Of a DNA stretch of 64,000 bases, positions 30,341-43,114 are shown in pieces (the first letter of the stretch is position 1; each line of letters begins with the position of its first letter). The DNA is from Escherichia coli (GTDB lineage Bacteria; Pseudomonadota; Gammaproteobacteria; Enterobacterales; Enterobacteriaceae). The stretch lies in assembly GCF_965641715.1 (NCBI RefSeq), contig NZ_OZ282453.1, one strand, 5' to 3'. Under the pieces are notes generated by a model. The model saw only the letters and a list, made by a program, of their open reading frames with translations, did not search any database and was not told the DNA's origin. Made by a program: the position numbers and the translations under genes.

Positions 30341-30347
30341 ACAGAAA

Positions 30348-30380
30348 ACCGCCGGGATTACCGGCGGTGATGACTTTTTG
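30348..30380 (+). terminator. intrinsic terminator after rutG
   Basis: ACCGCCGG-gatta-CCGGCGGT 8-bp stem followed by gatgacttttt. Confidence 0.75.
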
Positions 30381-30422
30381 ACGAGCTTAAGAAAAAAATG
30401 CATTCGTCATTGATTAGCCCGG

Positions 30423-30596: not shown

Positions 30597-30963
30597 TACT
30601 GACCTCCGTCTGGGTATAGACATCATATTGCATAGAATTAACGCGGCGTATGGCGGCTGCCATATTTTCGCTACGTGGGACTAAGCTTAGTGAACTGACG
30701 CGGGCAGACCCGCGTTTGGTAATATCCTGCAACAGCTTCTTAGCGAGAATAGATATCATCTCCAATAATTATCTATAAGCCGCTCTTATGATTAAAAAAA
30801 CGCGATGAGATAAAAATGTGTCATTTTGCGACAAAATTGCGTGCTTGTGAAAGTTGTTATAAATCAAATAAGTGGTTGTGAAATTTGCACTCTGAAAAGG
30901 ACGTCTTATCTTTAAATAAGTGGTAGCGAATCGCTACGGAATAGAGATAACACGAGGAGTGGT

Positions 30964-31005
30964 TAGAAATGGCTAAAGTTCTGGTGCTTTTACATAGCTA
31001 AACAC
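30964..31005. other. attL of the wrbA island (proposed crossover GT at 30984-30985)
   Basis: The host-to-island transition is located by comparison with the attR junction. GTGCTTT is shared at 30984-30990 and 42533-42539. Confidence 0.7.
30969..31001 (+). pseudogene. wrbA: orphaned native 5' end of wrbA (MAKVLVLLHS*), severed by island insertion
   Basis: ATGGCTAAAGTTCTGGTGCTTT equals the remembered native wrbA start (MAKVLVLYYS...). The sequence diverges after 30990 and hits TAA at 30999-31001. Confidence 0.85.
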
Positions 31006-31329
31006 GTACATTCAACTACCTGTTAATTACAGGACATAAACAGGTTAGTACCTATTCAATTTAAAGGCATTTCCCCAAGTATCTAAGCAATTCTACACAG
31101 ATTCTATGCAGTATCGGTATAGTCCCTTTTTATCATAACTTATTGAAATATATAAAGAATCTGTGAAGTATCTTTTCAGGGTAAACTGTATCGTGTTAGT
31201 CGTCCCTCTCCAGACACTACATATAGTGCTATATACAGGGTTATATAGCGATGTATAGATGCTTGGTCACCATACGTTACAGTTGCAAGAGATAACAATC
31301 AGCTATGTGAAAGTTAGGAAGTGATGGTT

Positions 31330-31367
31330 ATAGTTGATTCGGTTAGTTCTAGGAATCAACCTCATAG
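31330..31367 (+). repeat. hairpin unit U1 (ATAGTTGATTC...CTCATAG family)
   Basis: Stem GTTGATTC (31333-31340) / GAATCAAC (31353-31360), 12-nt loop, then CTCATAG. Confidence 0.7.
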
Positions 31368-31934
31368 TTACCTTGTCAAATCTTCGTAGTTCCTCTTAAA
31401 AAATCACTTACAGACACCTTAATATCTATACAGATTTCATGTAGAACACGATTAGTGCGTAAAAAAGCTATTATGTTAAAAACGCACTGTATACGTATCA
31501 GTACTGATTTATAAGGGTTTTGTGTATTGGCTGATAAGAGGCTATACAGCACCTTGAGAGCATGTCTTGTAAGTCATTGATACATAAGGTCACAGAAGTT
31601 TGTAGCTGTTACAGAGAAAACTGGATAGGACTTCACAGGACTATAAAATGTTACAGCAATTGATAGGTGAAATCTTCTTGATAGATGCTGTGAAGTGTGA
31701 TGAAGGTTTCTTGAGGTGGAGTTAACAGATGCTATGAAGAAAGTCAATAGATATTTTAAAATTCTGCAAAGGGGGCCACATAGCTGGTGTGACGGGTACT
31801 TAGCAGGTATAGACCTGTGATAGATATTTTCGAAGATTCGGGGAAGATGAGATTCAAAGAGGACTAGTCATTTTTTATAAAAATTTTCAGAGTCTGAAAA
31901 GTTACTGCACAGATTTTGCACAATCCTACCAAGC

Positions 31935-31969
31935 CTCATAGTTGATTCGATTAGAAGCTAATCTCATAG
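31935..31969 (+). repeat. hairpin unit U2
   Basis: CTCATAG-TTGATTC, then stem GATTAG / CTAATC with loop AAG, then (C)TCATAG. Confidence 0.7.
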
Positions 31970-31972
31970 AAA

Positions 31973-32085
31973 GCTCTGTAGCGAGTTTTAACCCCATTTT
32001 TAGGGGTAACCTGTAGGGATGTACCACCCACCTTAAAATAAAGGGGTAAAATCGCTTAGAATGCGTTACAGAGCGTCTGAGAAGC
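31973..32085. repeat. inverted-repeat arm Y (partner 35643-35755)
   Basis: The reverse complement aligns without gaps to 35643-35755. 81 of 113 positions are identical by hand count. Confidence 0.75.
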
Positions 32086-32596
32086 CATATTCACAGATTT
32101 TACTAAAACCTCAGACTTCTAAGTGGTCTTTTTAACAGGAGGGTTCTTTCTCATGTATCACCCTCTCTTCCCGCCAAGTAAGCTACACAGACCTAGAGAA
32201 TATGCCTTCACAGCATCTATATCAGGTCAGATTTAGAGGTCTTGATAGAATCTTCAAAGGTACTTGACAGATAACTATGAAGTTGTTAGGAAGGGGTGTT
32301 TAACGGGGGAAGAGATACGATATAACCCGAAGGGGAGAGTATCATCTTAACAGTGATTGTAAGAGTAAAACTGAAAAGATACTTAACAGAACTACCAAGA
32401 GGGAGCGATAAGACCAGAGGTAGTGACCTGTTAAACAGTTCGTTTCAAAGCTCTTAAGAGTCTGTTAAGTAAGGTCATGTGAACAATCATATCATTTTGT
32501 CAATGCTTTTGTCTTTGACCTAAATCAATAAAATGTATCGTTTGATGTGCTTTTAAACAAAATAGTTAAAAATCTTTTTAGAGGGGCGCTTCGCTT

Positions 32597-33265
32597 GTGT
32601 CACATCCAATAATCCATATCGGTCGTTATCATGGTGGTTCTGATGACTGGCGTACACCGTATCGTCTATTTCATAACCTGCATCGTGAGTATAGCTTCAG
32701 TCTAGATGGCGCTGCAACTGAGCATGACGCATTGTTGCCACGGTTCACCGATGATATAAACCGTCAATCATGGGTTGGTGAACGGGTCTTCGTTAACCCG
32801 CCGTTTAGCATGGCTGAACAGTTCCTCGCAAAAGCCCCTGAAGCTGATGTGTGTGTATGTCTGGTTCCGCACAGGTCAAAGACAACTTACTGGCTTCGGT
32901 GTGTATATACAAACCCCTTCCTGCATGAGATTCGAACATTACACCGAGCGGTTAAATACCTTCCACCAGCAGGAAAGAGAGGTGTTGTAGCGCGTTCACC
33001 ATTTGCAAGCTGTGTTTTGATATACAGGAACACACCCCGTAAACCGAAGGTTGAAATTACCCAGACAATCTATTGTGGCGACACAATGCTTTTACTTGCC
33101 GTGGTTAATAGGGGTGGTTTACGTGGAAGACCTCATATACACGATGCACAGACGCTTGACAGGTTGATTAAAATGCATGACCAAGGGCAATCCGTCAAGA
33201 GTATCGCAGAATCGCTAAGAATGCCTCTAAGCACCACTTACAGGATTGTTCAAAGGTTGAGCTAA
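32597..33265 (+). CDS. phage Dam-family N6-adenine DNA methyltransferase fused to a C-terminal resolvase-type HTH
   Basis: GTG start with GAGGGG 10 nt upstream. DWRTP...FSLDGAA and VFVNPPFS (motif IV) resemble the phage T1/Stx-phage Dam family. The C-terminus GRPHIHDAQTLDRLIKMHDQGQSVKSIAESLRMPLSTTYRIV resembles the Hin/resolvase HTH. Confidence 0.75.
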   Translation: MSHPIIHIGRYHGGSDDWRTPYRLFHNLHREYSFSLDGAATEHDALLPRFTDDINRQSWVGERVFVNPPFSMAEQFLAKAPEADVCVCLVPHRSKTTYWLRCVYTNPFLHEIRTLHRAVKYLPPAGKRGVVARSPFASCVLIYRNTPRKPKVEITQTIYCGDTMLLLAVVNRGGLRGRPHIHDAQTLDRLIKMHDQGQSVKSIAESLRMPLSTTYRIVQRLS

Positions 33266-33266
33266 A

Positions 33267-33296
33267 ATTCTCATATAGAGCACTGATTATGAGAAT
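33267..33296 (+). terminator. 9-bp perfect hairpin directly after the methyltransferase stop
   Basis: ATTCTCATA (33267-33275) / TATGAGAAT (33288-33296), 12-nt loop. No clear T-tract, so its function is uncertain. Confidence 0.35.
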
Positions 33297-33474
33297 GTTA
33301 AAGAGGCGATTTCCCCTTTCTGGGGTTATTCGCTTTTTACTGGAAGGGTTATTTTACAGAGGTTTTTCAAACCCCCTCAATAATAAAAAACGAGCAACAA
33401 ACGAAGAGCGAGAAATAAAATATTGAGACTGGTGAACGGGGTCTGTAAAGATTGTTTAAGAAGTCGGTTTAGGG

Positions 33475-33518
33475 ATTGGTAGATGATTCGGATGAAGCAT
33501 CCTCATAACAATACCAAT
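33475..33518 (+). repeat. hairpin unit U3 (nested stems)
   Basis: Outer stem ATTGGTA / TACCAAT. TGATTCG. Inner stem GGATG-AAG-CATCC, then TCATAA. Confidence 0.65.
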
Positions 33519-33574
33519 TAGAAGGTGGCTCTCCCTTTCTGGGGATATCGCCTTGTATCTTAGTGAGTCCAGGA

Positions 33575-33751
33575 AGTTCTCTGTGAAGGGACTTGTCAGT
33601 CCTTTATATTGGCTAATTACAACTTATTGAAAAATAAGCATTTTTAGAAATCACTGTTAAGGTTACAGAGTTCTCTGTGAAGAGACTCGTCAGCTCTCTA
33701 TATTGGCTAATTACAACTCATTGAAAAATAAGCATTTTTAGAAATTGCTGT
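33575..33751 (+). repeat. two direct 83-bp repeats with 94-bp period
   Basis: 33575-33657 against 33669-33751: 75/83 identical by hand count. Each copy contains CTGTGAAG...CTTGTCAG/CTCGTCAG and the hairpin CTTATT-gaaa-AATAAG (copy A; copy B reads CTCATT). Confidence 0.85.
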
Positions 33752-33871
33752 CAGAGAGGTGAGTACTTGATAGATACAGCTTTCCGGTTCTGTCAAGATA
33801 TTTTTTAATAGATAGCACAAAATGCTAAAGATACCCCTATACCATCACGTACAGGGGGTTTTGAAGGGAGT

Positions 33872-34060
33872 TTAACGGGGTTCTGTGTGGTTATCTGTTC
33901 TGGTCCTGTCCTTGAGGTCAAATGACCATTCACGACCAAACAATCTGAACACGATAAACACCCGAACGATGAAATAGCGGAGCAGAAGACCTGCAATCAG
34001 CCCAACACCTCCACCAGCCCATACATCAGGTGACCCCAGCTCAGGAGGGAGATTTACCAT
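33872..34060 (-). CDS. possible small membrane protein (62 aa from the internal ATG; 74 aa from the first ATG at 34096)
   Basis: Only minus-strand ORF in the island besides int. This patch is visibly more GC-rich than the surrounding non-coding DNA. AGGAA lies upstream of ATG 34060. TM segment GGGVGLIAGLLLRYFIVRVFIVF followed by a basic tail. Confidence 0.35.
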   Translation of the reverse strand: MVNLPPELGSPDVWAGGGVGLIAGLLLRYFIVRVFIVFRLFGREWSFDLKDRTRTDNHTEPR

Positions 34061-34097
34061 TAAATTTCCTGTGTGCAATGCAATACCATGTGACATA

Positions 34098-34153
34098 CAT
34101 AGTTGATTCGGTTAGTTGGGCTTGTACCAACCCCTATCGAATAAACCTCATAG
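34098..34153 (+). repeat. hairpin unit U4 (nested stems)
   Basis: CATAGTTGATTCGGTTAGTT is identical to U1 over 19 nt. Outer stem TTGATTCG / CGAATAAA, inner stem GTTGG / CCAAC, ends in CTCATAG. Confidence 0.7.
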
Positions 34154-34222
34154 CCACGCTTCATATTTCCCCCTCTCTCATAAACCATTATACCACAAAT
34201 GTTACGAAATTGTTAAAAATAC

Positions 34223-34251
34223 TTGACATTAGTCTTTGAAAATGCTAGTAT
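34223..34251 (+). promoter_or_regulatory. island promoter P1 (sigma70-type)
   Basis: TTGACA-17 nt-TAGTAT, preceded by TGTTAAAAAT and followed by TGTATATA. It is a near-copy of P2. A GTTAA-N7-TTAAC palindrome follows at 34261-34277. Confidence 0.65.
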
Positions 34252-34299
34252 TGTATATAAGTTAACAGAGAATTAACAATTATAAGGACTAGCTTATGA

Positions 34300-34857
34300 A
34301 TGAACGACAGAGAATTTAGAGCGATGCTTCAGGCATCGAGACAACGTAACAGATACAACTCCTACAGCTACACAGACACCCCCACCAGCTACGAACTACC
34401 CAAGCTCACCAGAGCAGAACGCAAAGGCCTTGATGAATTAATTCGTAGCATTACGCCACGAGATAGATTTATGCCAACCAGAAAGAGCACGAAGAACACT
34501 ATTAAAAATTATCTGGCTAACTTTGACAGCTACGAACAATTACCAAGTAAGCTTGATGATGTAATTATCGGATTCTGTAGAAGTGAAGGTCACCCGAAAT
34601 ACAACAAAAAACTATTTTATCTTCTAAAGAATCTTGACGAAATTAACTCAGCCACCGTGACAAATCATCTTCAGCGTCAAGCAACCAGACTTAGCCATGA
34701 ATTACCAAGCGATAAATATTGCGCTTTGCTTGCTGTAATGTGCGCAAAGTTAATTGGTGTTGTTGAGCATCATATTGCCGTTGGAAATATTGAGCCAATG
34801 GAAAACGAGCAACCAGATTTCGAGTTTGACCCGTATTTAGTTACAGAGGAATTTTAA
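34300..34857 (+). CDS. hypothetical protein, 185 aa
   Basis: AAGGA upstream. First gene after P1. No family recognised. Confidence 0.65.
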   Translation: MNDREFRAMLQASRQRNRYNSYSYTDTPTSYELPKLTRAERKGLDELIRSITPRDRFMPTRKSTKNTIKNYLANFDSYEQLPSKLDDVIIGFCRSEGHPKYNKKLFYLLKNLDEINSATVTNHLQRQATRLSHELPSDKYCALLAVMCAKLIGVVEHHIAVGNIEPMENEQPDFEFDPYLVTEEF

Positions 34858-35136
34858 ATGAAGAAACACACTTTGACCCGTATTTCAGAAGAAGCCTTTC
34901 ACGAGCTTACCCGAATTAAACAGACAACTAACCTCCCTCATCAAACTGTTATGCAGCTTGCAATTGCTAAAGAGGTTACTGAGTCGGATTTACTGAAATA
35001 TCCAGTCTCTAAAGGTCGTAAGCACATCCGAATTACTCAGGACGCTTTAGATACTTTGAAGGCACTTAACAACTTTAAAATTGATATCGCCCGACTATTG
35101 AGTATTAAGATTCACAAGTTAGCAATGGGGGTTTAA
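34858..35136 (+). CDS. hypothetical protein, 92 aa (possible ribbon-helix-helix DNA binder)
   Basis: ATG abuts the upstream TAA. The N-terminal KKHTLTRISEEAFHEL pattern looks RHH-like (weak). Confidence 0.55.
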   Translation: MKKHTLTRISEEAFHELTRIKQTTNLPHQTVMQLAIAKEVTESDLLKYPVSKGRKHIRITQDALDTLKALNNFKIDIARLLSIKIHKLAMGV

Positions 35137-35351
35137 TGCTATGCGTTACCTTTGAATACCACACGGATAAAATGATTCGCTACATCTCCGACCTCCTGAT
35201 TGAAGGAAACGGATTCGGTGACATCCATAACTCAAAAGATATTTTCATTAAAGCCATTGGCCCAAATGAAGTACTGAAAACAGCAGTTAAACCGGAATGG
35301 TTTGAGCGTCACAAGATTGAATTAGGTTATTGGGGTGAGGAGGTTTTATGA
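35136..35351 (+). CDS. hypothetical protein, 71 aa
   Basis: TAATG overlap with the upstream gene. Confidence 0.55.
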   Translation: MLCVTFEYHTDKMIRYISDLLIEGNGFGDIHNSKDIFIKAIGPNEVLKTAVKPEWFERHKIELGYWGEEVL

Positions 35352-35635
35352 AACCTTGGCATGAAGATGTTAGACGATATTTTACAGAACACCTTATCTA
35401 TGATGAATCCAGTGATTCCCTGTGCTGGTCTGATGGAGAGTCAGTCACGATAAACACCGACGACTACGGCAACAAAACATTTAATATAGGCCGATATACT
35501 TTCTACGTGAAATATGTTGTCTGGTTCCTTTATCATGGCTATCAATCCAACAAGCAAATTATCCATCGAAATGGTAACAGAGCCGATACCAGACCAAAAA
35601 ATCTTATGCAAGTCCGAGACTTTAAGAGAAATTAG
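35348..35635 (+). CDS. small HNH-type endonuclease-like protein, 95 aa
   Basis: ATGA overlap with the upstream gene. YVVWFLYHGY...IHRNGNRADTRPKNL resembles the HNH_3 motif (H-x-N-G-N..DNR..NL). Confidence 0.65.
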   Translation: MKPWHEDVRRYFTEHLIYDESSDSLCWSDGESVTINTDDYGNKTFNIGRYTFYVKYVVWFLYHGYQSNKQIIHRNGNRADTRPKNLMQVRDFKRN

Positions 35636-35642
35636 AAAAACA

Positions 35643-35755
35643 GCTTCTCAGACGCTCTCAATCGCATTCTAACGCAAAAAACTATCTTATTTTAGGGTGG
35701 GTAATACCACTGTACAGGCTACCCCTGAAAAAGACTGTTTAGCTCGTTACAGAGC
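35643..35755. repeat. inverted-repeat arm X (partner 31973-32085)
   Basis: See arm Y. Lies in the 156-bp gap between the HNH gene and the next ORF. Confidence 0.75.
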
Positions 35756-35791
35756 GATTGAGGAGGTCTGGTAAAAAGGAGATTTTAAGAA

Positions 35792-36121
35792 ATGAGAGAA
35801 TTAAACTTCCCACTACAGATTTTTATTGATACCGACACCGCCATGATGATTCAGGCTTTCACTGATGTAGGTGTTAGCATTGACTTTGATAAGTTGTTAG
35901 AGTTAATGACTGATAATGCGGAAAGCATCTCTGACTTTATTCAGTCGGTGGAGTTTAACGAGCCTCGAATGATGCTACCAATTAAAGACAGCAACATGAA
36001 AAGATTGGTTATCGAGCAAACGAACAAATTCAGCGTTAGCCCTGAAAAATATCTCAAGGCGGCTATAGCAATTTTGTACGCTGACAATATTTTGGTGACG
36101 GATTCGAAGGTGGTGCATTAA
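35792..36121 (+). CDS. hypothetical acidic protein, 109 aa
   Basis: AAGGAG lies 8 nt upstream of the ATG. Confidence 0.6.
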   Translation: MRELNFPLQIFIDTDTAMMIQAFTDVGVSIDFDKLLELMTDNAESISDFIQSVEFNEPRMMLPIKDSNMKRLVIEQTNKFSVSPEKYLKAAIAILYADNILVTDSKVVH

Positions 36122-36186
36122 TGGAATTGGTGATTATCTGTTTTGTATTGATTGGTATGATTGCAGGTGCATCTATTAAAGTATAA
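36121..36186 (+). CDS. 21-aa hydrophobic peptide MELVIICFVLIGMIAGASIKV
   Basis: TAATG overlap with the upstream stop (translational coupling). Single TM-like stretch. Below the ORF-track size cutoff. Confidence 0.4.
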   Translation: MELVIICFVLIGMIAGASIKV

Positions 36187-36211
36187 ATGTTACCAATCTG
36201 TTAAAAATCTG

Positions 36212-36240
36212 TTGACAAATAACCTTGAGCATGACATAAT
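36212..36240 (+). promoter_or_regulatory. island promoter P2 (sigma70-type)
   Basis: TTGACA-17 nt-CATAAT, preceded by TGTTAAAAAT and followed by TGTATATA. Confidence 0.65.
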
Positions 36241-36246
36241 TGTATA

Positions 36247-36503
36247 TATATGAGGATAGTCTTCTATCCGAAGTCTATAGGGAGAGCAATTCTCCTTGAA
36301 TTAAAATATTAATCATCTCTACATCAATGATAACTATATTCTGAGTTGGTGAGGTATGTTCTATACCGAACATTCTGAAAGGTGCAATGCTTTTCGTCAT
36401 GGCCTTTCAGTTTAGTCTGAGAGGCTATCTCAAAAAGTGCTTAATCATTCATTCATTGAATCCTTTACAGCTTTGCCCTAATCATGAGTTAGGGCGTTTC
36501 TTT
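36247..36503 (+). ncRNA. putative ~255-nt leader/short RNA from P2 to the first terminator
   Basis: No ORF of 60 aa or more. Hairpins GGATAG-tctt-CTATCC, GGAGA-gcaat-TCTCC and CTGAAAGG (36375-36382) / CCTTTCAG (36403-36410). Ends at an intrinsic terminator. Confidence 0.3.
36475..36503 (+). terminator. intrinsic terminator in the P2 leader
   Basis: GCCCTAA-tcatgag-TTAGGGC followed by GTTTCTTT. Confidence 0.7.
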
Positions 36504-36573
36504 AAGAGTTTTAAGCAGAGCTTTTAAAGAAAGTTTTTCCTGAAACTTCGTTAACGTTATAAAGCAAACCTTC

Positions 36574-36610
36574 AAAGCCCTTCACAGATTCAATGTTTAG
36601 GGCTTTTCTT
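36574..36610 (+). terminator. second hairpin/terminator in the P2 leader
   Basis: AAAGCCCT / AGGGCTTT 8-bp stem. The 17-nt loop contains CTTCACAGATT. Followed by TCTT. Confidence 0.45.
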
Positions 36611-36707
36611 AATAGAGCATCTTTAATAAATCGTTAAGTCATCTTCTAAGTGTATTGGCGTTGAAGGTGCTCTGTTAAGAAATAAACCACACTTAGAGGA
36701 AGTTATA

Positions 36708-37418
36708 ATGACAAACGATTTATATATTAACGGTAAAAAGGTTGATAGCTTCGGTGACTGGTCGCCACAGACTGAACATCCAGCTATCACTATTCAGCGC
36801 AAAGAACACGATGAAAGAATTGCACTTGAGCAAGAAATCCGAATGTCACCAAAGGTAATTTCCTTTGTGGCTCCTGAGCCTCAAGATATGCCGGATATTT
36901 GCAAAACTGAAGCATTGCTTGAGCTTGAAAAGAAATTTTACCCAGCTTTAAAAGCACAGCGTCTTAAACTAGATGACGCTTACAGTAAAGTTACCCTGAT
37001 GCAATCAGCTATTGAGCCATCAGAATTTGAGATTCAGGATGAATTGTCACAGAAACCATTTGTCTATTACCAATATGAAGACAATGATGGTTTTGGTACT
37101 TTTCCTGAGAATATCCCAGACGTGATTAATAATCCGATGGATGGATATCGAATTGTGAAGATGGTTAAGGCATCAAGAGGTGCTGGTCAGTTTATTTACA
37201 TGACTAATAAGAGCGATGAAGAACTCGCTGAACTTGCTAGACAGAACATCTTGGCATCACGTAACAAGCAGCTTGATAATGTTAAGTTGTATCTCTCAAG
37301 AGAGCTTCAGGCTATGAAAGACCTTGTGAAAGAATATGAAGATGCTAAGAAGATTGCTATGCAAGCCGATATTGAGCAGTTAGTGAAGATTTCTAGCAAA
37401 TATGCAAAGGCTATTTAA
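36708..37418 (+). CDS. hypothetical acidic/coiled-coil protein, 236 aa
   Basis: AGAGGAAG upstream. It sits where tail assembly chaperones sit in siphophage gene order, but I saw no sequence motif supporting that role. Confidence 0.6.
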   Translation: MTNDLYINGKKVDSFGDWSPQTEHPAITIQRKEHDERIALEQEIRMSPKVISFVAPEPQDMPDICKTEALLELEKKFYPALKAQRLKLDDAYSKVTLMQSAIEPSEFEIQDELSQKPFVYYQYEDNDGFGTFPENIPDVINNPMDGYRIVKMVKASRGAGQFIYMTNKSDEELAELARQNILASRNKQLDNVKLYLSRELQAMKDLVKEYEDAKKIAMQADIEQLVKISSKYAKAI

Positions 37419-37437
37419 TTATGATGTGAGGTGAAGA

Positions 37438-37653
37438 ATGATTGATTTAACTGAACGCTATGAAGTTATTAAGTCTGTTTGTGAGAACTTAAAGCTTCAG
37501 ACTAAACCAAAGCTACGAATTAAAAATCAGCATCAAGTTATCACCTCACACAAACCAAAGGTTAGAAGGATTCCTTCATGGTGTATTGACCGTGTTCCTG
37601 CTGATGCTCAATTAATTGGTGAGTCTGGTTCTTACACTTATATCCTTCATTAA
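37438..37653 (+). CDS. hypothetical basic protein, 71 aa
   Basis: GAGGTGAAG upstream. Confidence 0.5.
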   Translation: MIDLTERYEVIKSVCENLKLQTKPKLRIKNQHQVITSHKPKVRRIPSWCIDRVPADAQLIGESGSYTYILH

Positions 37654-37660
37654 AAATTAC

Positions 37661-37704
37661 AAAGGGGAGAGATTAGCCTTAATTGGTTAGTCTTTCCCTT
37701 TTTC
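37661..37704 (+). terminator. imperfect hairpin + T-run upstream of the tape-measure gene
   Basis: aaaggggagaga ... tctttccctttttcg, with a bulged stem. Confidence 0.4.
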
Positions 37705-37734
37705 GTATATGAACACTTAAGAGGTGAAACATGA

Positions 37735-39864
37735 ATGGCACAGTTTAAAGTTGATAGTTTTATCGTTGAGCTAGGCTTCAGCGAGAACGTTATTAAGGGC
37801 TTGCAAAGAGTTGAAAAGGCAGCTTTGCAGTCAGCACAAAGAATTGAGCGTAATTTGAATAGAGCGTTTAAGGTCGATACCAAGCAACTTGACAGCAATT
37901 TAACGGCTTCTTTGAAGTCAATGGAAGGAAAAATTAATAAGACCTTTGACCGTCTGGAAGCTAGAGCAAAAAATACTAAAGCTTTCCAGTTTACCACCAG
38001 ATTTAATGACACTGTTAATCCTCCAAAACAACCGAGACAGCCACGAATTAGCGGCAACAGAGCAATCACAGCAGCTTACTCAGCGAATATGAGCAAGTTA
38101 AAGGGCTTTGACCCTATTTTGCAGAAATACATCAAATCTCAGTTTTACGGGCTATCTGCTAAAGCTGGGTCAATGGATAACACCAAGTTTAATGAAGCCC
38201 TTGCTAAACTAAATTCAAGTGTAAGAGAAGCAATTGCTAAAGCTAAAGGTCATACATCCACCAGCATTAACGGTGACAGAGCAGCTAATAGTCTTGATAA
38301 CCTGTCTTCAGCGGCGGTTAAAACAGCAGGTGCATTTATCTCAATGCAGGCTGTATTAGCCAGTTATCAGAAGATTATGGAGGTTGGTTTACAGCGTGCA
38401 AGTGCTGAGCGTTCAATTGATTTCGTATTTGATAAAGATGCAGGTCAGGTAAAAGAGTTCACAAAGTCATTAGCTCAAACAACGGGTTTAGATATCGCTG
38501 AACTGCAATCACAGTTTGCTGGTTTCGGTGCTTCAGCTAAAGAGTCTATGGGTATTCAAGGTTCTGAAGAGCTTTTTAGAAATATGATTGGCTATGCTCG
38601 TTTAATGGGTCGAAGTGAAGAAGAGATTAAGCGAGCACTGACAGCATTATCACAGATGGCTGGTAAGGGTCAGGTTATGGCTGAAGAGCTTAAGGGGCAA
38701 CTAGCTGAAGCTGTTCCTGGTATGGTTCAGGTATTCGCTAAAGCAACCGGAAAGAGTGAACAGGAATTATTTGATGCCATGAAGAAGGGGGCTTTAAAAT
38801 CTGCCGATACTCTTCAGAAGGTCACTCAGGAACTGAATAGACAAATCACCGCTAAAGGTGGCTGGAAAGCTATTTCAGAAAGTACACAGGCACAACTAGG
38901 GAACTTGAAAAACTCTTGGAATACCACGCTTGACAGTATTTTCAGAGGTTCTGAAGATGGTTTACAGGACTTCACAAGAAGCTTAACCAATCTTCTAAAC
39001 GCTCTTGGTGGAACTGGTAAAACATTAGGTGAAAGTTTTGGTAGCTTGATGAGCGATATGTCACATGGTATCGATTCATTGACTGATATCTCTTACAGGG
39101 TACGAGGTTTCTTTGATGAGGTGACATTAGCTTACCGTTCACTAAATGACACTCAGAAAAAAATTGTTGATGGTTTATCTGATGGGTTAATTGATGGTTT
39201 GAAAATGCTTGCCGTAGCTGTTACTGCTCAAAAGGCTGCAAATGTAGCTGGAGGCTTGTTAAACCTTGCAAACGCTGTTACTTCATTCGGTGACGCTGTT
39301 AATAAAGCTAAAGCTGGCAAGGCTGGTTCTTCAGGTGGTGCGCTAAGTAAAGTCGGTAGAGTTGTCCTTTATGCTGAGTTGGTAAACTTTGCTCTTGATA
39401 ATTTAAACCCTGAAGCAGCTAAGAATCCGAACTTACATCAATCAGGTATTGGAACAGAGACAAACTTCAACCCTGAATACAAAGGCGATTCTACACCAAA
39501 CCAAATTAATGATGGATGGGCTAAGATTGGTAGTTCTATCGCTGACTGGTTTAATGGTGCGGCTAATAAAATTGCTAACTTCCAAGAGCCAATGAGTAAC
39601 CTTGTTAATAACACACAATCAACTCCACCAGCTATTACAGGTGACATGGTTAATAGCAATGCTCAACTTGCAATGGCTATTAGTGAACTATCACGTAAGG
39701 TTGATGCTTTAACAGCAGAATCTAAGAAGCCCTTGTCACTTAATATCAAAGGTGAAGCAATTGTTAGACCGGATGAACCAGCTTTCTTTACTTTCAATCA
39801 ATCAGCTAATGACCAGTTCACGCAGGATATGCTCTTAAGTTCAAGCTATCCAGAGGAAGAATGA
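37735..39864 (+). CDS. phage tail tape-measure protein, 709 aa
   Basis: GAGGTG lies 8 nt upstream. LSQMAGKGQVMAEELKGQLAEAVPGMVQVFAKATGKSEQELFDAMKKGALKSADTL matches the conserved tape-measure N-terminal domain pattern. Long Ala/Gly/Ser-rich helical protein. Confidence 0.8.
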   Translation: MAQFKVDSFIVELGFSENVIKGLQRVEKAALQSAQRIERNLNRAFKVDTKQLDSNLTASLKSMEGKINKTFDRLEARAKNTKAFQFTTRFNDTVNPPKQPRQPRISGNRAITAAYSANMSKLKGFDPILQKYIKSQFYGLSAKAGSMDNTKFNEALAKLNSSVREAIAKAKGHTSTSINGDRAANSLDNLSSAAVKTAGAFISMQAVLASYQKIMEVGLQRASAERSIDFVFDKDAGQVKEFTKSLAQTTGLDIAELQSQFAGFGASAKESMGIQGSEELFRNMIGYARLMGRSEEEIKRALTALSQMAGKGQVMAEELKGQLAEAVPGMVQVFAKATGKSEQELFDAMKKGALKSADTLQKVTQELNRQITAKGGWKAISESTQAQLGNLKNSWNTTLDSIFRGSEDGLQDFTRSLTNLLNALGGTGKTLGESFGSLMSDMSHGIDSLTDISYRVRGFFDEVTLAYRSLNDTQKKIVDGLSDGLIDGLKMLAVAVTAQKAANVAGGLLNLANAVTSFGDAVNKAKAGKAGSSGGALSKVGRVVLYAELVNFALDNLNPEAAKNPNLHQSGIGTETNFNPEYKGDSTPNQINDGWAKIGSSIADWFNGAANKIANFQEPMSNLVNNTQSTPPAITGDMVNSNAQLAMAISELSRKVDALTAESKKPLSLNIKGEAIVRPDEPAFFTFNQSANDQFTQDMLLSSSYPEEE

Positions 39865-40020
39865 TTTAACGGTGTTCTACGTGAATAAAGCAAAGTTAAT
39901 ACCCACACCAAAAATTATTTTTCACGTAGCTCACGCTTAACAGAGAAAATACATATATATCAAAGGCTTGGTTAAAAATGATTAAAATACACTAAGCCTT
40001 TGAAATCAAAGGAGAATTTA

Positions 40021-40794
40021 ATGATTTTTAGCAATCAAATCCGCTACAGTGGCAAAGATGGCATCTATTTCCACTTAAGAGATAATGTAGATGCCTTCTT
40101 AACCTTATCAGCAACTGAAAACATGGAATTTGACAGTCCTATGCAGGTGACTACACAGAACATGCAATCAGGGCAAACCGTCACAGATAATGTGCAAAGA
40201 GCACCCAGAACAATCACTATTAGTGGTGTCGTTGTAGTTGGCTATGAAGGAAGCTTATTATTAACTCGTCAGGGTCAATTAGTAGAAAACTTCATTGACA
40301 CTCTTGAAAGCTGGAGAGACCAGAAACAAATTATTTCAGTGATTTGTAAAGATGGTATCAAGATTGATGACTCAATTATTACCAACTTTAAAGCCTCTAA
40401 AGATGTTACTATCTCTAACGGTCTTCGTATCCAGCTAACTTTTCAGGAAATTAACTTCAAAGCCATTGTAGGGCAAACTGATGTTTCAGCAGCTACTGGC
40501 AAAACTGCTACCACTAATGATGGTGGTGCTACCAGTAAAAAGAATGCGGGTAACGTGACTACTGAACGCAATAACGCACCTATGTTGATGTGTCAGGAAC
40601 TGTATAGCTACTCAGCATCTGAGCTATCTGATGAAGCGCTAAGGGTCCGTAGCAATTGCTCTAAAAATGTCACGGTGAAAGATGGTGTAAGCACCTTCAC
40701 AGCCTCAGCTAATGAGCAGGCTTCAAAAGTGCTTAAGTCGGGTAATGCTTTACGGAAGTTTAGTGTGAATCCGAATAAGAAGGGCACTTATTGA
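40021..40794 (+). CDS. putative tail-tip/distal-tail-like protein, 257 aa
   Basis: GGAG lies 6 nt upstream of ATG 40021. Sits directly after the TMP. The assignment rests on position only. Confidence 0.45.
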
Positions 40795-40811
40795 TTGGTA
40801 ACAATACCAAT
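40794..40811. terminator. hairpin between the convergent tail gene and int
   Basis: ATTGGTA-acaa-TACCAAT. These are the same arms as the outer stem of unit U3. Confidence 0.45.
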
Positions 40812-40813
40812 TC

Positions 40814-42457
40814 CTAAGCGTCCACCTCTTCCATATCACCAGCAGGATAAATCCTTGTTACTGGTTCACCAAAAATAAGCATATCATCTAGTGACTGCAT
40901 CTCATCGGTTGCTTCTTCAAGCGTTAAGGTGTGGTCATCTTTACCATCAAGAGGGAAACCACGAATCATATTTCCATTGTGAAGATATATATCCACCAGC
41001 TTTTCATTACCAGAAACAACAATCTCTTTCACCAGACGCTTAATGATAATCTGGGCTTCAGTTCTCCCCTCTACAGACTCCATATCAAGACCGCTTAAAT
41101 CCAAGCTTGATACAGATTTTACCCTCGCCTTTTCTCGTGATAACTGAACTATCAGTTCATCTTTTTCTTCCTGCTTAACCCGTAGTGCTTCCTGAATCTG
41201 AGTGATGTTAGGAAGCTGTATCAGCGTCTCAGTAAGTTTTTCAAGTTCACTATCAACGGTGTTTAGTCTGCGTTGTAGCTCATCCAATTTAGCTGTGTCA
41301 GTAGCTTCATCGTGTAGCTGTGATAGTTTGCTGAACAGACGACTACAAAGCTGTGTATCAAGTAACTTTCTGGACACTGTACCGTAGCTACAACGGGACT
41401 CCTTATTACCATTGCAACGGTAAGTACCTTGATAAACGGGTTTACGTATCCCTGTAGGAGTCATTACAAGCCCACACTTACAACGGATAAGCCCCTTCAG
41501 TATGTTCACATATAGCCAGTGTTCACCGCTGGATGTTTTCCCCTTCCCTGTTTCCTCTAACAGTTGCTGTACAGCGTAAAACTTAGAGTCTGTGACAATC
41601 TGAGGATAGAACCCTTCAATTTCTTCACGTAACACTGTTTTACGGTCTTCTGTAGAAATCTTAGCGGGAAGGTAACCTAATACACTTCGTGAAGTCAGGA
41701 TGTGTTTAACGCTTAATGCTGACCAGTTGCCATCCGGTTTCTTAGTCTTGGATATTCTGACCTTACGCTGATTAATGGTCGGGTAACCTTGTTCGTTTAG
41801 CCATTTACAGATAGCAAACATCGACATACCAGAAAGACGCTTGTCATAGATGATATTCACCAGTGACGCTTTATCTTCATCAACGATGTAGTGTGAACCG
41901 TCTTCTGATAGCTCTAACCATCCGGGGGCTTGCTTACCCATAGGCTTCTTAAGTTCTCTTGCAAGCTGTGTTTTATGGTTCCAGACCTGAGCTATACGCT
42001 TTTGCTTAACAAGAGATTCCTGATGTGCTCTCTCAGCTATGATGATGTGCTTAATCAACTTCACAGGGTCTGTTAATGCTGATTTGTCGTAGAGTTCACC
42101 ATCTCCCAGAGTCAGTATAGAGACTCCTTTCCTCAGTATCTGCCTGACATCATCTATAGCTGTGTCGATATCAGCCCTACTGAAGCGGTCAAAGTTCTCT
42201 ACAACAATCAGGGAACCTTCTGGAATAGCCCCAGACATAACATTTTCAAACATACGTCTGAAGTCAGAACCTTGAGCCTTATGTTGCTGGTGAAAACCAG
42301 ATTTACCCTTATCAACGTATCTGTGAGCAGGAAGAAGGTAATAATCGTTTTTGTGCTTAGAGTAGAAAGCATCAATGAGGTTTGTTTGCCGTCTTAAGGA
42401 GTCTCCTGAGTCTTGCTCTTTAGTACTCCACCTGATGTATGTCACTAGCAGCTTCAT
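40814..42457 (-). CDS. large serine recombinase (integrase), 547 aa
   Basis: N-terminal resolvase catalytic domain ([28 protein letters not shown]). Recombinase domain. Cys-rich zinc ribbon (CKCG...YRCNG...C). Coiled-coil. Terminal position 75 bp from attR. Confidence 0.88.
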
Positions 42458-42508
42458 ATCTTCGGACTATGCTTATCTAAGTGGTTCATTGAACAGGAGA
42501 ACAATGAT

Positions 42509-43114
42509 ATGAGTGTTAAGGCAAGAATACTAGTGCTTTATTATTCCATGTACGGACATATTGAAACGATGGCACGCGCAGTCGCTGAGGGTGCAAGCAA
42601 AGTGGATGGCGCTGAAGTTGTCGTTAAGCGTGTACCGGAAACCATGCCGCCGCAATTATTTGAAAAAGCAGGCGGTAAAACGCAAACTGCACCGGTTGCA
42701 ACCCCACAAGAACTGGCCGATTACGACGCCATTATTTTTGGTACACCTACCCGCTTTGGCAACATGTCCGGTCAAATGCGTACCTTCCTCGACCAGACGG
42801 GCGGCCTGTGGGCTTCCGGCGCACTATACGGAAAACTGGCGAGCGTCTTTAGTTCCACCGGTACTGGCGGCGGTCAGGAACAAACCATCACATCCACCTG
42901 GACGACCCTTGCGCATCACGGCATGGTGATTGTCCCCATTGGCTACGCAGCGCAGGAATTATTTGACGTTTCACAGGTTCGCGGCGGTACGCCGTACGGC
43001 GCAACCACCATCGCAGGCGGTGACGGCTCACGCCAGCCAAGCCAGGAAGAACTGTCTATTGCTCGTTATCAAGGGGAATATGTCGCAGGTCTGGCAGTTA
43101 AACTTAACGGCTAA
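42509..43114 (+). CDS. wrbA: NAD(P)H:quinone oxidoreductase WrbA, hybrid allele with an island-encoded N-terminus
   Basis: 201 aa. [17 protein letters not shown]... against remembered native [14 protein letters not shown].... AGGAG at 42495-42499. The remainder matches WrbA. Confidence 0.92.
42513..42554. other. attR of the wrbA island (proposed crossover GT at 42533-42534)
   Basis: Island-to-wrbA transition. See attL. Confidence 0.7.

Follow-up and report, generated by a model that had tools for sequence, protein, structure and literature searches.

A probable satellite of Felix O1-like phages in Escherichia coli with a tape measure protein and tube initiator of its own

The stretch of Escherichia coli DNA considered here (64,000 nucleotides, referred to as the window) holds an integrated element with genes for a tape measure protein and one further tail protein, which raises the question of what a mobile element does with such a small part of a tail. 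An initial annotation offered two answers: a satellite that remodels the tail of a helper phage, or a prophage that has lost its head module and distal genes. Our analysis favors the former. The island is probably an integrative satellite, or “hitcher”, of virulent Felix O1-like myoviruses (Felixounavirus, Ounavirinae), because it brings two core tail proteins in versions of its own, together with non-coding DNA copied from the phage genome end. It has probably not been described before.

An island in the 5' end of wrbA

In an alignment with K-12, homology ends at 30990 and restarts at 42530, with a 10-bp core common to both sides. The resulting length of 11,549 bp, counting one core, is exactly that given in the initial annotation. 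Other E. coli have the same element at this site. The G+C content is 36–43%, against about 55% in the flanks.

30991..42529, + strand: island, 11,539 bp, plus one 10-bp core
30981..30990, no strand: attL core, CTGGTGCTTT, within what was originally the 5' end of wrbA
42530..42539, no strand: attR core, CTAGTGCTTT
40814..42457, - strand: large serine recombinase (integrase), 547 aa

Both cores were placed from the K-12 alignment and the junction sequences. The displaced wrbA start codon (ATG at about 30970) and promoter lie just upstream of the attL core, and wrbA now occupies 42509–43114, with a new start and N-terminus (MSVKARI...) provided by the island. The terminal serine integrase was correctly recognized at the outset: it matches Resolvase (PF00239) and Recombinase (PF07508) above the cut-offs and Zn_ribbon_recom (PF13408) just below, as well as PHROG 95 and the PhiC31 integrase (8e-10).

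The open reading frames lie where they were first placed, as checked against the sequence, and the tightly coupled junctions at 34857/8, 35136, 35348 and 36121 are present. The single gene orientation noted earlier holds for nearly all of the non-recombinase genes, which are on the + strand, but one small conserved ORF is on the minus strand.

32597..33265, + strand: orphan N6-adenine DNA methyltransferase with a fused C-terminal HTH (PF05869, PF02796; PHROG 111)
33872..34060, - strand: conserved, divergently transcribed small membrane protein, about 62 aa (tblastn)
34187..34251, + strand: operator-like shared sequence (repeat D3) and sigma-70-like promoter TTGACA-17-TAGTAT for the o185 operon
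34300..34857, + strand: o185, core protein
34858..35136, + strand: o92, core protein (Pfam, PHROGs, family comparison)
35136..35351, + strand: o71a, small core protein (family comparison)
35348..35635, + strand: small HNH endonuclease, 95 aa (PF13392, 1.8e-8; PHROG 99)
35792..36121, + strand: o109, core protein (family comparison)
36175..36505, + strand: second operator copy and sigma-70-like promoter, then a terminated leader or small RNA
36708..37418, + strand: o236, core protein specific to the island family
37438..37653, + strand: o71b, small core protein directly upstream of the tape measure gene (family comparison)

The methyltransferase is an accessory gene, missing from relatives L001 and L027. 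Homologues of the membrane protein, 75–94% identical, were found by tblastn in L001, L007, L008 and L027 and are annotated as a CDS in L008; its ORF stays open as far as an ATG at 34096. A divergent minus-strand promoter (TTAACA-18-TATAAT) overlaps that of the o185 operon. Further downstream, a strong sigma-70-like promoter at 36212–36240 (11/12 matches) is followed by an intrinsic terminator at 36474–36496. Since the promoters are of the sigma-70 type, the expression of some island genes is suggested to be independent of the phage. The HNH endonuclease exists as two allelic types in the island family, with a 39% identical type in L001 and L008. The o236 protein, mislabeled as a “transposase” in RefSeq, is predicted to form a long helical hairpin with a small α/β domain.

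No island ORF of at least 65 aa matched head, portal, terminase, sheath, tube, lysis or replication families in searches of Pfam and PHROGs (ten ORFs, eleven with o71b) and NCBIfam (ten ORFs, with o71b in place of the recombinase), in line with the initial annotation. Neither a capsid-size or packaging gene (Pfam, PHROGs) nor a replication initiator was recognizable, and PADLOC, run on the same ORFs as NCBIfam, found no known defense protein except the orphan methyltransferase. Candidates for a role in regulation or replication, in redirecting capsids or packaging, or in interfering with the helper are the six family-specific proteins, along with the HNH nuclease and the small membrane protein. 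The 11.5-kb genome amounts to about one-eighth of the capsid capacity of the helper.

Two chimeric tail proteins

37735..39864, + strand: tape measure protein (TMP), 709 aa
40021..40794, + strand: tube initiator (TI), 257 aa from its ATG

The assignment of the 709-aa protein as a TMP is confirmed by profile search, with matches to Pfam PF20155 (TMP_3, 3e-20, above the curated cut-off), PHROG 4036 (2e-82) and TIGR02675, and to the tape measure of phage Bas63, gp017 (PDB 9ndy_F, 2.4e-67). The next ORF was called at 40000–40794, and its real start is probably the ATG at 40021. It was right to consider this a tail gene, as shown by matches to PF21821 (Dit_like, 5.5e-20), PHROG 3721 (2e-133) and the Bas63 “tube initiator gp018” (PDB 9ndy_A, 6.8e-121). 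However, the distal-tail reading first suggested by its position needs correction: the match is to a protein of the myovirus baseplate hub, not to a siphovirus Dit, and by homology it is the tube initiator of a contractile tail. In the Bas63 structure, which names both proteins, the hub contains the hexameric TI together with the 25 C-terminal residues of the TMP.

The TI gene is 90–94% identical in nucleotide sequence to Felixounavirus genomes, and the two genes are adjacent and in the same order as in those phages, although the phage genes overlap at their junction and the island genes are set 136 bp apart by a hairpin-containing spacer. The nearest TMPs in the phage collection, at about 31% identity, all belong to virulent Ounavirinae; no temperate phage in that collection has a closer one. 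Felixounavirus is a strictly virulent lineage with genomes of about 86 kb and no integrase. By sequence comparison, both tail genes thus derive from strictly virulent Felix O1-like phages, an origin that is first recognized here.

A second new point is that both proteins are, as judged from their alignments, chimeric throughout the island family. In TI, residues 8–190 are 93% identical to phage EC106, but the C-terminal ~75 aa only about 39%; across the islands examined, the corresponding values are 66–99.5% (the highest being from one island compared with a Felixounavirus) and 35–44%. The TMP is close to the phage in its N-terminal ~40 aa and C-terminal ~15 aa, with an island-specific middle: in the islands examined, the first 40 aa are 69–82% identical to phage, as opposed to 0–55% elsewhere in the protein. 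Island TMPs are 682–722 aa long, compared to 735–747 aa in the phages. No sequenced phage has the island-type TMP body or TI C-terminus. The phage-like parts are likely to be those that contact phage proteins.

Phage genome-end sequences, relatives and the excised circle

The non-coding arm was described as iteron-rich, and it does contain an excess of the motif CTTMACAG (18 copies in the window against 3.4 expected, 15 of them in the island and 10 in 30991–34300), which is common to island and phage, and a 94-bp tandem repeat, possibly an origin or a binding array.

31336..31367, + strand: mini-element GATTCGR-hairpin-YCTCAT, with more copies at 31944–31969, 33485–33508 and about 34105–34153
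31739..31905, + strand: block homologous to phage sequence that spans the inner end of the direct terminal repeat (DTR) in Ounavirinae
31973..32118, + strand: left copy of a ~145-bp inverted repeat
35610..35755, - strand: right copy of the same repeat
32400..32434, + strand: short block, 92% identical to the phage terminal-repeat interior (EC106 82070–82105, E = 3e-6)
33468..33521, + strand: non-coding block of 52–54 bp, 91–100% identical to the Felixounavirus terminal non-coding region
33575..33751, + strand: 1.8 copies of a 94-bp tandem repeat; each copy has CTTCACAG and a core rich in A+T

When the island is compared with an 88-kb phage genome, all significant non-coding matches fall in the 1.7-kb non-coding region of the phage that contains its physical end. 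Many phage records begin or end at one point of this region, where a 570-bp terminal repeat is annotated in one relative; a 581-bp DTR has been reported using PhageTerm (PMC8303462). The arm, as far as these alignments tell, copies cis-elements of the phage region that holds the terminal repeat. The block at 31739–31905 matches EC106 81665–81820 (blastn, E = 5e-10) and, in an alignment with five phages, including a Mooglevirus, retains sub-blocks that are invariant across phage genera: GATATTTTAAAATTCTGCAAAGGGG, TAC..AGCAG.TATA.ACC, AGATATTTT and TTTTATAAAAATTTT. The annotated DTR end of phage HP1 lies within the matching block, which is kept even in the distant island L023 and is a candidate recognition site for the packaging or replication machinery of the helper. 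Of the two phage terminal-repeat boundaries, only one is clearly matched in the island. The 52–54-bp block is present in only three Felixounavirus records, and the mini-element was found, among the sequences checked, only in island arms and in the phage terminal non-coding region.

The same gene order occurs with three different serine recombinases and att sites, at wrbA, at yecE, and at a third site flanked by genes for an MFS transporter and an acyltransferase, and it is kept even when marker proteins are only 28–45% identical. The TMP gene is present in 431 of 5,426 complete E. coli genomes (8%), in up to three copies per genome, and all ORFs are intact in independent copies of the island. 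Close o185 homologues are named from E. coli, Shigella, Salmonella, E. albertii and E. fergusonii, most of which are also recorded hosts of the Felixounavirus phages matched. In nucleotide sequence, the distant relatives L023 and L024 match known phages little or not at all. Searches of E. coli genomes, IMG/VR and assemblies yielded no longer relative that includes head genes.

The exact attP junction predicted for the excised element is present in three metagenome contigs. One of these is circular (11,233 bp with a 55-bp terminal overlap, at 14.7x coverage) and spans the complete element, its ORFs intact, without any flanking host DNA. The junction was found in none of the 5,426 complete chromosomes, although 86 have both island ends, and had no match in the viral contig collection. 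The flank-free circle in one metagenome suggests amplification or encapsidation.

A proposed tail-remodeling satellite and its alternatives

A satellite with its own TMP and tail-tip protein was the hypothesis of the initial annotation. On comparative evidence this is the best supported reading, with TI as the second protein, since the gene content is conserved across three integrase and att-site types, the chimeric tail proteins are phage-like at the likely phage-contact parts, the non-coding arm copies phage genome-end cis-elements, and an excised circular form occurs in metagenomes. The likely helper is a virulent phage, which had not been anticipated. Counting against the satellite reading are the absence of a recognizable capsid-size or packaging gene and replication initiator, the small share of the helper capsid that the genome would fill, the lack of an attP match in the viral contig collection, the single terminal-repeat boundary with a counterpart, the rarity of the 52-bp block and the sigma-70-type promoters. 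At rest, the island occupies the 5' end of wrbA, into which its own large serine recombinase has inserted it. Infection by the helper would trigger excision to the circle seen in metagenomes, and phage machinery that recognizes the copied cis-elements would then amplify and package the island. The island TMP and TI would take the place of the phage versions at the core of the baseplate hub, with TI residues 8–190 and both TMP ends allowing them to dock to the phage hub, tube and accessory proteins. By analogy with the PLEs of Vibrio cholerae, the island-specific TMP body and TI C-terminal extension may result in chimeric tails, about 2–10 nm shorter going by TMP length, that serve the satellite, harm the phage, or both.

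The PLEs, which have serine integrases, are satellites of ICP1, a virulent myovirus, and were shown in 2025–26 to encode a TMP of their own (PMC12987554). Every V. cholerae PLE has genes for a TMP and a tail assembly chaperone, some also have one for a baseplate hub protein, and the tails that they assemble are chimeric and slightly shorter, with the phage versions excluded (PMC12987554), so the earlier view that satellite families lack a tape measure no longer holds. Like the island, PLEs integrate, encode a large serine recombinase, have almost all of their genes in a single orientation, and contain an extensive, repeat-bearing non-coding region and small uncharacterized proteins, some of which are helper-interference factors in PLE. 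PLEs depend on or target a strictly virulent myovirus, as the island probably does, and both encode a TMP and a tail protein at the level of the baseplate hub, whose incorporation is shown for PLE and proposed for the island. Nevertheless, the two appear to be analogous, not homologous: no protein relationship was detectable by sequence, no RepA_N-type initiator was found in Pfam, and island proteins matched no solved structures beyond the phage TMP, phage TI and PhiC31-type integrases. Host and helper are Vibrio and ICP1 in one case and Enterobacteriaceae and probably Felixounavirus in the other, the second tail gene is BhuB in PLE instead of TI, and the island has no recognizable tail assembly chaperone. 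The tail proteins of PLE are 20–41% identical to those of ICP1, whereas the island proteins are recent chimeras that reach 99.5% identity to the phage in one domain. The PLE life cycle has been shown experimentally, whereas we infer that of the island. PLEs are also larger, at about 18 kb compared to 11.5 kb.

P4-like satellites, which use P2-like helpers, are about the same size as the island (P4 is about 11.6 kb), integrate in Enterobacteria, carry the packaging signal of their helper and possibly share an RNA-based or terminated-leader control region. P4 has a tyrosine integrase, the alpha primase-helicase, Sid, Psu, Delta and cos, a temperate helper and no tail protein; none of these P4 families was detected in the island using Pfam, PHROGs and NCBIfam. 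PICIs, cf-PICIs and PICMIs are likewise small integrative islands dependent on helper virion parts. They are defined by a tyrosine integrase, AlpA, a primase-replicase, and packaging or capsid genes, none of which was detected by the same searches. PICMIs are described as using virulent helpers (bioRxiv 10.1101/2023.07.18.549517), and some cf-PICIs are reported to have putative tmp genes (PMC12987554, Extended Data Fig. 10). The cf-PICIs make capsids and steal tails, the opposite of the division of labor proposed for the island. The direct homologues of the island genes are those of the Felixounavirus tail core (Bas63 gp17 TMP and gp18 TI, PDB 9ndy), with the same order, a nearly identical tube-like TI domain and conserved TMP termini. 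Unlike in the phage, they lie on a chromosomal island beside an integrase, with an island-specific TMP body and TI C-terminal extension. The satellite features also fit a mobile defense element that sabotages tails without being transduced.

Such an anti-phage island is the less likely, but most serious, alternative. TMP and TI would be dominant-negative “poison subunits” that dock via their phage-like parts and stall or misbuild Felixounavirus tails, the copied terminal sequences would be decoys or sensors, and excision would serve ordinary horizontal transfer or gene dosage. A chimeric design suits interference as well as substitution, tail-assembly interference is established according to an account of the Tai systems (PMC11364771), with Rta of PLE11 as another case, and the island combines the lack of a recognizable packaging or capsid gene with a conserved membrane protein gene that has its own sigma-70-like promoter. 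However, the only known defense protein is the orphan methyltransferase, and two large, full-length structural genes of correct length in every member exceed what a poison needs, for which a fragment is enough. Copied genome-end elements are a hallmark of elements packaged or replicated by phages, and the flank-free circle likewise points to amplification or encapsidation. Both roles coexist in PLE, so defense may complement the satellite reading instead of competing with it. It is improbable that the true helper is an unsampled phage, temperate or virulent, outside Felixounavirus and that the likeness reflects occasional recombination only. Its attraction lies in the low identity of the TMP body to any sequenced phage, the poor nucleotide matches of L023 and L024, and the rarity of the 52-bp block; yet TI residues 8–190 are at least 66% identical to Felixounavirus in all islands, the conserved non-coding block matches sub-blocks invariant across Ounavirinae, and the hosts largely coincide.

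Very improbable is a gene-conversion parasite, in which the HNH enzyme would cut the phage TMP–TI genes and the island copy would act as the repair template, so that island alleles, not the whole island, spread into phage genomes. The HNH gene is near-core, phage-like stretches bracket the divergent TMP body and TI C-terminus, and nuclease genes are described as marking exchange boundaries in phages (PMC10055350), but the island alleles are missing from sequenced phages, and the integrase, excised circle and terminal-region mimicry are left unexplained. The prophage with deleted head, terminase and distal tail genes is effectively refuted. Phage-derived structural genes beside an integrase, without the gene set for an autonomous virion, are what such a relic would show, but the tail genes come from a virulent lineage without an integrase, and the same short gene set recurs with three integrases and attachment sites, down to 28% protein identity; relatives with a marker protein of only 28–36% identity retain the short architecture. 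The ORFs are intact in independent copies, and the element is present in 8% of complete E. coli genomes. The island still excises, as seen from the attP junction and the circular contig, and no longer, head-bearing relative was found in the collections searched. The preferred reading, a satellite with its own TMP and TI, would make probable helpers of the Felix O1-like lytic phages, which are widely used in the typing and biocontrol of Salmonella and E. coli.

Integration into wrbA and the excised form

The island is integrated within wrbA by a serine recombinase of its own, and an excised form of it exists. The genes rutG, ymdF, wrbA, yccJ and agp in the window are those of the E. coli chromosome, and the G+C content of the island is 36–43% against about 55% in the flanks. 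Homology to K-12, whose wrbA site is empty, stops at 30990 and restarts at 42530 with a 10-bp core common to both, so that the island measures 11,549 bp counting one core. This is the length proposed in the initial annotation, whose ORF coordinates also match ours. Within wrbA the insertion falls in the first codons; it leaves the old start codon at the left junction, and at the right junction the island provides a new start and N-terminus.

The last island gene, on the opposite strand, encodes a large serine recombinase with the Pfam domains PF00239 and PF07508 above cut-off and a zinc ribbon (PF13408) at 22.1 bits, slightly under its cut-off of 25.3. The two junctions each have the 10-bp core but differ in it by one base, which locates the crossover within GTGCTTT. 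Domains and a short core at both element ends together identify the protein as a large serine recombinase integrase, as had been read from the sequence. Searches of the island ORFs with Pfam, PHROG and NCBIfam detected no head, portal, terminase, sheath, tube, lysis or replication family, which agrees with the earlier description of an element devoid of recognisable head, terminase, tube, lysis and replication genes; like satellites in general, it lacks a complete virion gene set. A tRNA search and an Rfam search found nothing within or beside the island.

The insertion replaces wrbA's own promoter and start codon and the N-terminus MAKVLVLYY... (window 30960-30990, 42509-42539). The wrbA start is now 51 bp from that of the divergently oriented integrase gene, and wrbA expression may therefore be under island control. 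Outside the island, a register shift in the K-12 alignment at ymdF 30347-30382 is an effect of internal repeats in ymdF.

The attP predicted from the two junctions, AATACTAGTGCTTTTACATAGCTAAA, was found in three metagenome contigs (from ERZ506742, ERZ506766 and OOBX01) by an exact-match scan. One of these (11,233 bp, 14.7x coverage, ends overlapping by 55 bp) holds the complete element in a form circularly permuted through attP; every ORF is intact, and host sequence is absent. The second, from another sample of the same series, carries the junction at its end. The third is 23,009 bp long, of which 6 kb was read, with the junction at its midpoint; it may represent a dimer or concatemer, or else be an artefact of assembly. 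The junction is present in none of the 5,426 complete E. coli genomes, 86 of which contain both island ends. Tandem chromosomal copies were thus rejected as its source, and it represents an extrachromosomal circle or concatemer. A viral contig collection gave no match to it. Taken with the empty K-12 site, the attP contigs show an element that integrates and excises as a discrete unit, another general property of satellites.

Tail proteins of Felixounavirus origin

Two adjacent genes precede the integrase gene:

37735-39864 (+), tape measure protein (TMP), 709 aa
40021-40794 (+), tube initiator (TI), 257 aa from the probable ATG start (ORF open from 40000)

TMP matches PF20155 (TMP_3) at 73 bits (cut-off 41), PHROG 4036 at 2e-82 and the structurally assigned TMP in PDB 9ndy_F at 2.4e-67, and NCBIfam agrees; its identification as a tape measure thus stands in the profile searches. 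TI matches the "tube initiator protein gp018" of the Felix O1-like phage Bas63 (PDB 9ndy_A) at 6.8e-121 over residues 11-264, the whole length, and PF21821 (Dit_like) at 72 bits (cut-off 24). It directly follows TMP, in the gene order of the phages. The initial annotation was right to call this a tail gene, but these two matches make its product the tube initiator of a contractile tail rather than a distal-tail protein. According to the Bas63 cryo-EM paper, gp17 is the TMP and gp18 a hexameric tube initiator, and both are part of the hub of the baseplate; the TMP touches the hub and puncture apparatus with its last 25 residues, and a C-terminal extension of about 100 residues on TI runs outward through the baseplate.

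The phage origin of both proteins is clear from their closest matches. A nucleotide search of a phage collection with the island matched 231 records, mostly from Felixounavirus, virulent myoviruses of ~86 kb in which the TMP gene is directly followed by the same gene of 266 aa. Window 40036-40554 (query 9337-9855) is 90–94% identical to Felixounavirus records. The nearest phage TMPs in a protein search were all from Ounavirinae, at only ~31% identity. When all island proteins were compared with two Felixounavirus genomes by tblastn, TMP and TI alone matched. A resemblance between the N-termini of the island protein o236 and a phage chaperone (6/7 residues) was not significant and was dropped.

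Comparison of nine to fourteen related islands with the phage shows that both proteins are consistently chimeric.

Identity of island TMP and TI segments to their phage counterparts
TI residues 8-190: 66–99.5%, the closely matching segment
TI C-terminal ~75 residues: 35–44% in every island compared
TMP first 40 residues: 69–82%
TMP last ~15 residues: conserved relative to the phage
TMP remainder: 0–55%

The boundary between the phage-like and divergent parts of TI is sharp, and the TMP is 682–722 aa long in the islands versus 735–747 aa in the phage. The rest of each protein has an island-specific form that is itself conserved across the island family. This pattern suggests that the phage-like segments are those that must contact phage proteins.

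The junction of the two genes is an overlap (ATGA) in the phage versus a 136-bp spacer in the island (within window 39865-40020). The spacer holds a CTTAACAG motif and a hairpin with an 8-bp stem immediately before the TI ribosome-binding site, and TI may be regulated separately from TMP.

The non-coding arm and candidate control elements

The similarity extends to non-coding elements, which the island has in common with the phage's terminal region. When the first 6.7 kb of the island were queried against all phages in a sensitive search, the only match was a block of 51–68 bp at ~33453-33521 that is 91–100% identical to unannotated sequence in three Felixounavirus genomes. When the island was compared with the complete genome of Felixounavirus EC106, all three significant non-coding matches fell within one gene-free region of 1.7 kb between convergent blocks of small genes. 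This region includes the physical genome end, since many independent records start or stop at one point there, and in a related Mooglevirus record an annotated 570-bp repeat region begins at that point. Packaging via direct terminal repeats of 581 bp has been reported for one Felixounavirus (PMC8303462). Island block 31739-31905 aligns to sequence spanning the inner boundary of the phage terminal repeat and keeps exactly those sub-blocks that are invariant in five phages from two genera; one distant island has kept it as well. The motif CTTMACAG occurs 18 times in the window versus 3.4 expected, 15 of the copies lying in the island, and the phage region contains nine CTTAACAG copies. A mini-element, GATTCGR-hairpin-YCTCAT, was found in the island arms and the 1.7-kb phage region only, among the sequences checked. 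In all, three blocks and two motifs are common to the island and the phage terminal non-coding region only and are candidate helper cis-signals. From their position and conservation, the copied sequences may act in cis in packaging or replication.

Copies of the mini-element lie at window 31336-31367, 31944-31969, 33485-33508 and ~34105-34153, and in the Felix O1-like phages at EC106 82474 and 82717, NBEco005 272 and BPS15Q2 609. Its ends are conserved around a variable internal hairpin, and its position and orientation differ among Felixounavirus genomes. In EC106 one hairpin site is "empty" (GGGATTGGTAACAATACCAATTAG) and another "filled", as if the ~26-bp insert were mobile. Two other readings of this region were rejected: the phage-identical block (52 bp) is not a tRNA fragment, as ARAGORN finds no tRNA in the phage region, and the ends of the BPS15Q2 record are no direct proof of a terminal repeat, which is absent from one or both of them.

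The candidate control elements are as follows:

34187-34251, sigma-70-like promoter with a preceding ~34-bp sequence
36175-36240, second sigma-70-like promoter with the same preceding ~34-bp sequence, followed by a putative terminated leader or small RNA
33872-34060 (−), gene for a small single-pass membrane protein of ~62 aa, divergently transcribed

The second promoter is strong (TTGACA-17-CATAAT with an extended -10) and is followed about 230 nt on by an intrinsic terminator, 200 nt before o236 (promoter and leader together, 36175-36512). The 3' 140 nt are conserved in 8 islands and form hairpins with some compensatory changes, while the middle is variable. The transcript may, judging from the sequence, be a small RNA or an attenuated leader. 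RNA-based control is used by P4, which this arrangement recalls, as it does the SviR small RNA of the Vibrio satellites known as PLEs. The membrane protein gene is 75–94% identical in four relatives, is the only conserved minus-strand gene other than the integrase gene and has its own strong sigma-70-like promoter at 34216-34187; its product is a candidate for a pre-infection function such as exclusion or toxicity. A hydrophobic ORF of 21 codons (36121-36186; MELVIICFVLIGMIAGASIKV) overlaps the stop codon of o109 (TAATG) and is conserved at 95–100% in two relatives.

An inverted repeat of ~145 bp (31973-32118 and 35610-35755; 73–74% complementary) flanks the 3.5-kb segment from the Dam to the HNH gene. 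Its right-hand copy is found in all seven matching relatives, one of them distant, and both copies are present in the window and in two related loci (L001 and L008). As RNA it folds better than shuffled sequences (z = -3.9), and a few base pairs differ at both positions between the two types of copy. The repeat may represent a structured RNA, a protein-binding site or a site of recombination for the small resolvase that some relatives carry.

The island family and its relation to known satellites

The island is a member of a family of mobile elements and not debris. Its relatives share the gene order o185, o92, small ORF, HNH, o109, o236, small ORF, TMP, TI and serine recombinase, sometimes with a Dam-HTH gene and/or a small resolvase as accessories. 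The same order is found at wrbA, inside yecE, where the recombinase is only 35% identical, and between an MFS-transporter gene and an acyltransferase gene, where o236 is only 28–36% and o185 45% identical. The TMP gene occurs in 431 of 5,426 complete E. coli genomes, always on the chromosome, in at most three copies and highly diverse. The taxa named for close homologues of o185 are E. coli, Shigella, Salmonella, E. albertii and E. fergusonii, and o236 is confined to the family (18 representative clusters among 1.84 billion proteins). A one-genome-per-species scan gave two loci only, because it requires exact peptide words. An IMG/VR search with TMP returned mainly prophage-style calls from isolate genomes and no virome evidence.

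Several relatives carry in the left arm an extra small serine recombinase (182–191 aa) of the resolvase/invertase type that is absent here:

L007 2709-3260, small serine recombinase
L023 5053-5622, small serine recombinase (distant island)
L024 5321-5896, small serine recombinase
L027 5981-6529, small serine recombinase

The Dam-HTH gene is absent from L001 and L027. Homologues of o236 are commonly labeled "transposase" in RefSeq (e.g., WP_097343995.1, and most of the best 120 of 3,125 clusters), a label without Pfam, NCBIfam or structural support that is probably propagated annotation; structure predictions of o236 and o185 led to no assignment. Many island copies are broken by IS3, IS21/ISEc12, IS100, IS26 or IS1414 (L018 5200-7600; H1, H3, H5, H7), and one metagenome contig has two IS-like ORFs inserted in TI. 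Part of the island population is therefore inactivated.

P4-like satellites are characterized by Sid/Psu/Delta, an alpha primase, a tyrosine integrase and the cos of a P2-like helper. None of the P4 families was detected in the island, and its integrase is a serine recombinase. In PICIs and cf-PICIs, AlpA and a tyrosine integrase are accompanied by a primase-replicase and by capsid or small terminase genes; Pfam, PHROG and NCBIfam found none of these families, and the island also falls outside the definition of PICMIs.

The closest known system in working mode is that of the PLEs of V. cholerae. The initial annotation had assumed that none of the known satellite families it compared carries a tape measure, a premise that fails, since genes for a TMP and a tail assembly chaperone are present in all PLEs and one for a baseplate hub protein in some (PMC12987554; 2026 Nature, preprint 2025). 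These proteins replace the versions of the helper ICP1, yielding chimeric tails that are 10 nm shorter, and PLE11 adds Rta, which blocks phage tail assembly via the phage TMP (PMC12987554). The island resembles the PLEs in its serine integrase and in its own tmp with another tail gene, and judging from sequence matches its helper, too, would be a virulent myovirus. The host is another, as is the putative helper, and the protein encoded by the second tail gene is a different one. No PLE-associated family, including RepA_N, was found in the island proteins with Pfam, PHROG and NCBIfam, and PDB searches with o185, o109 and o236 gave no significant match. PLE membership is thus not supported, as judged from family profiles and PDB searches.

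The islands are probably a new family of PLE-analogous satellites of virulent Felix O1-like phages. Infection by a Felixounavirus would set off island excision, and the phage machinery would act on the copied cis-elements in replication and/or packaging, while the island TMP and TI would be built into the hub instead of their phage counterparts, giving chimeric tails. How an 11.5-kb genome would be accommodated in an 86-kb capsid may be explained by packaging of multimers or by size redirection through an uncharacterized island protein.

The main rival explanation, a mobile defense island that sabotages tails and is itself not transduced, is rather unlikely, and PADLOC matched the island proteins to no defense system, its sole hit being "orphan methyltransferase" for the Dam-like protein. 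Tail sabotage may hold in part, alongside the satellite function. Far less probable is a prophage remnant, suggested earlier in the form of a prophage that had lost its head module. E. coli genomes, IMG/VR and assemblies contained no closely related complete prophage, no full-length relative with head genes was found, every relative has the same short architecture, and the nearest phage TMPs come from virulent Ounavirinae.

To our knowledge, very few systems are known in which satellites exploit virulent phages (PLE-ICP1, PICMI, MiniFlayer). No report was found in the literature of such a satellite in the main model and clinical enterobacteria, nor of a paper tying any satellite to Felixounavirus; coverage was incomplete, and an earlier description elsewhere is possible. 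The chances are about even that these islands represent the first satellites in E. coli, Salmonella and Shigella to depend on a strictly virulent phage. The family would then have arisen independently of the PLEs and reached the same strategy, in which a serine integrase is combined with substitution of the tape measure and of a tail protein at hub level; island bodies would be grafted onto nearly unchanged helper interfaces, and the terminal-repeat boundary would be copied for packaging.

The feature itself is genuine and was correctly spotted, and it draws its weight from the practical importance of the helper, the prevalence of the element and the clean dissection of tail-core interfaces. 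If the satellite reading is true, tail manipulation by a satellite, an idea only recently established for PLE, would have a second and independent example, in an E. coli system that is genetically tractable and whose helper virion structure has been solved (Bas63). One could then ask how the satellite's tape measure gets picked over that of the phage, with the chimeras as a natural experiment that maps the TMP and TI segments needed for docking. Felix O1-like phages are classic Salmonella typing phages, and therapy and food biocontrol are among their proposed or actual uses. A dedicated parasite and antagonist of these phages would be present in about 8% of E. coli strains, and a common chromosomal element that hijacks or sabotages their tails would be an unrecognized determinant of phage efficacy and host range.
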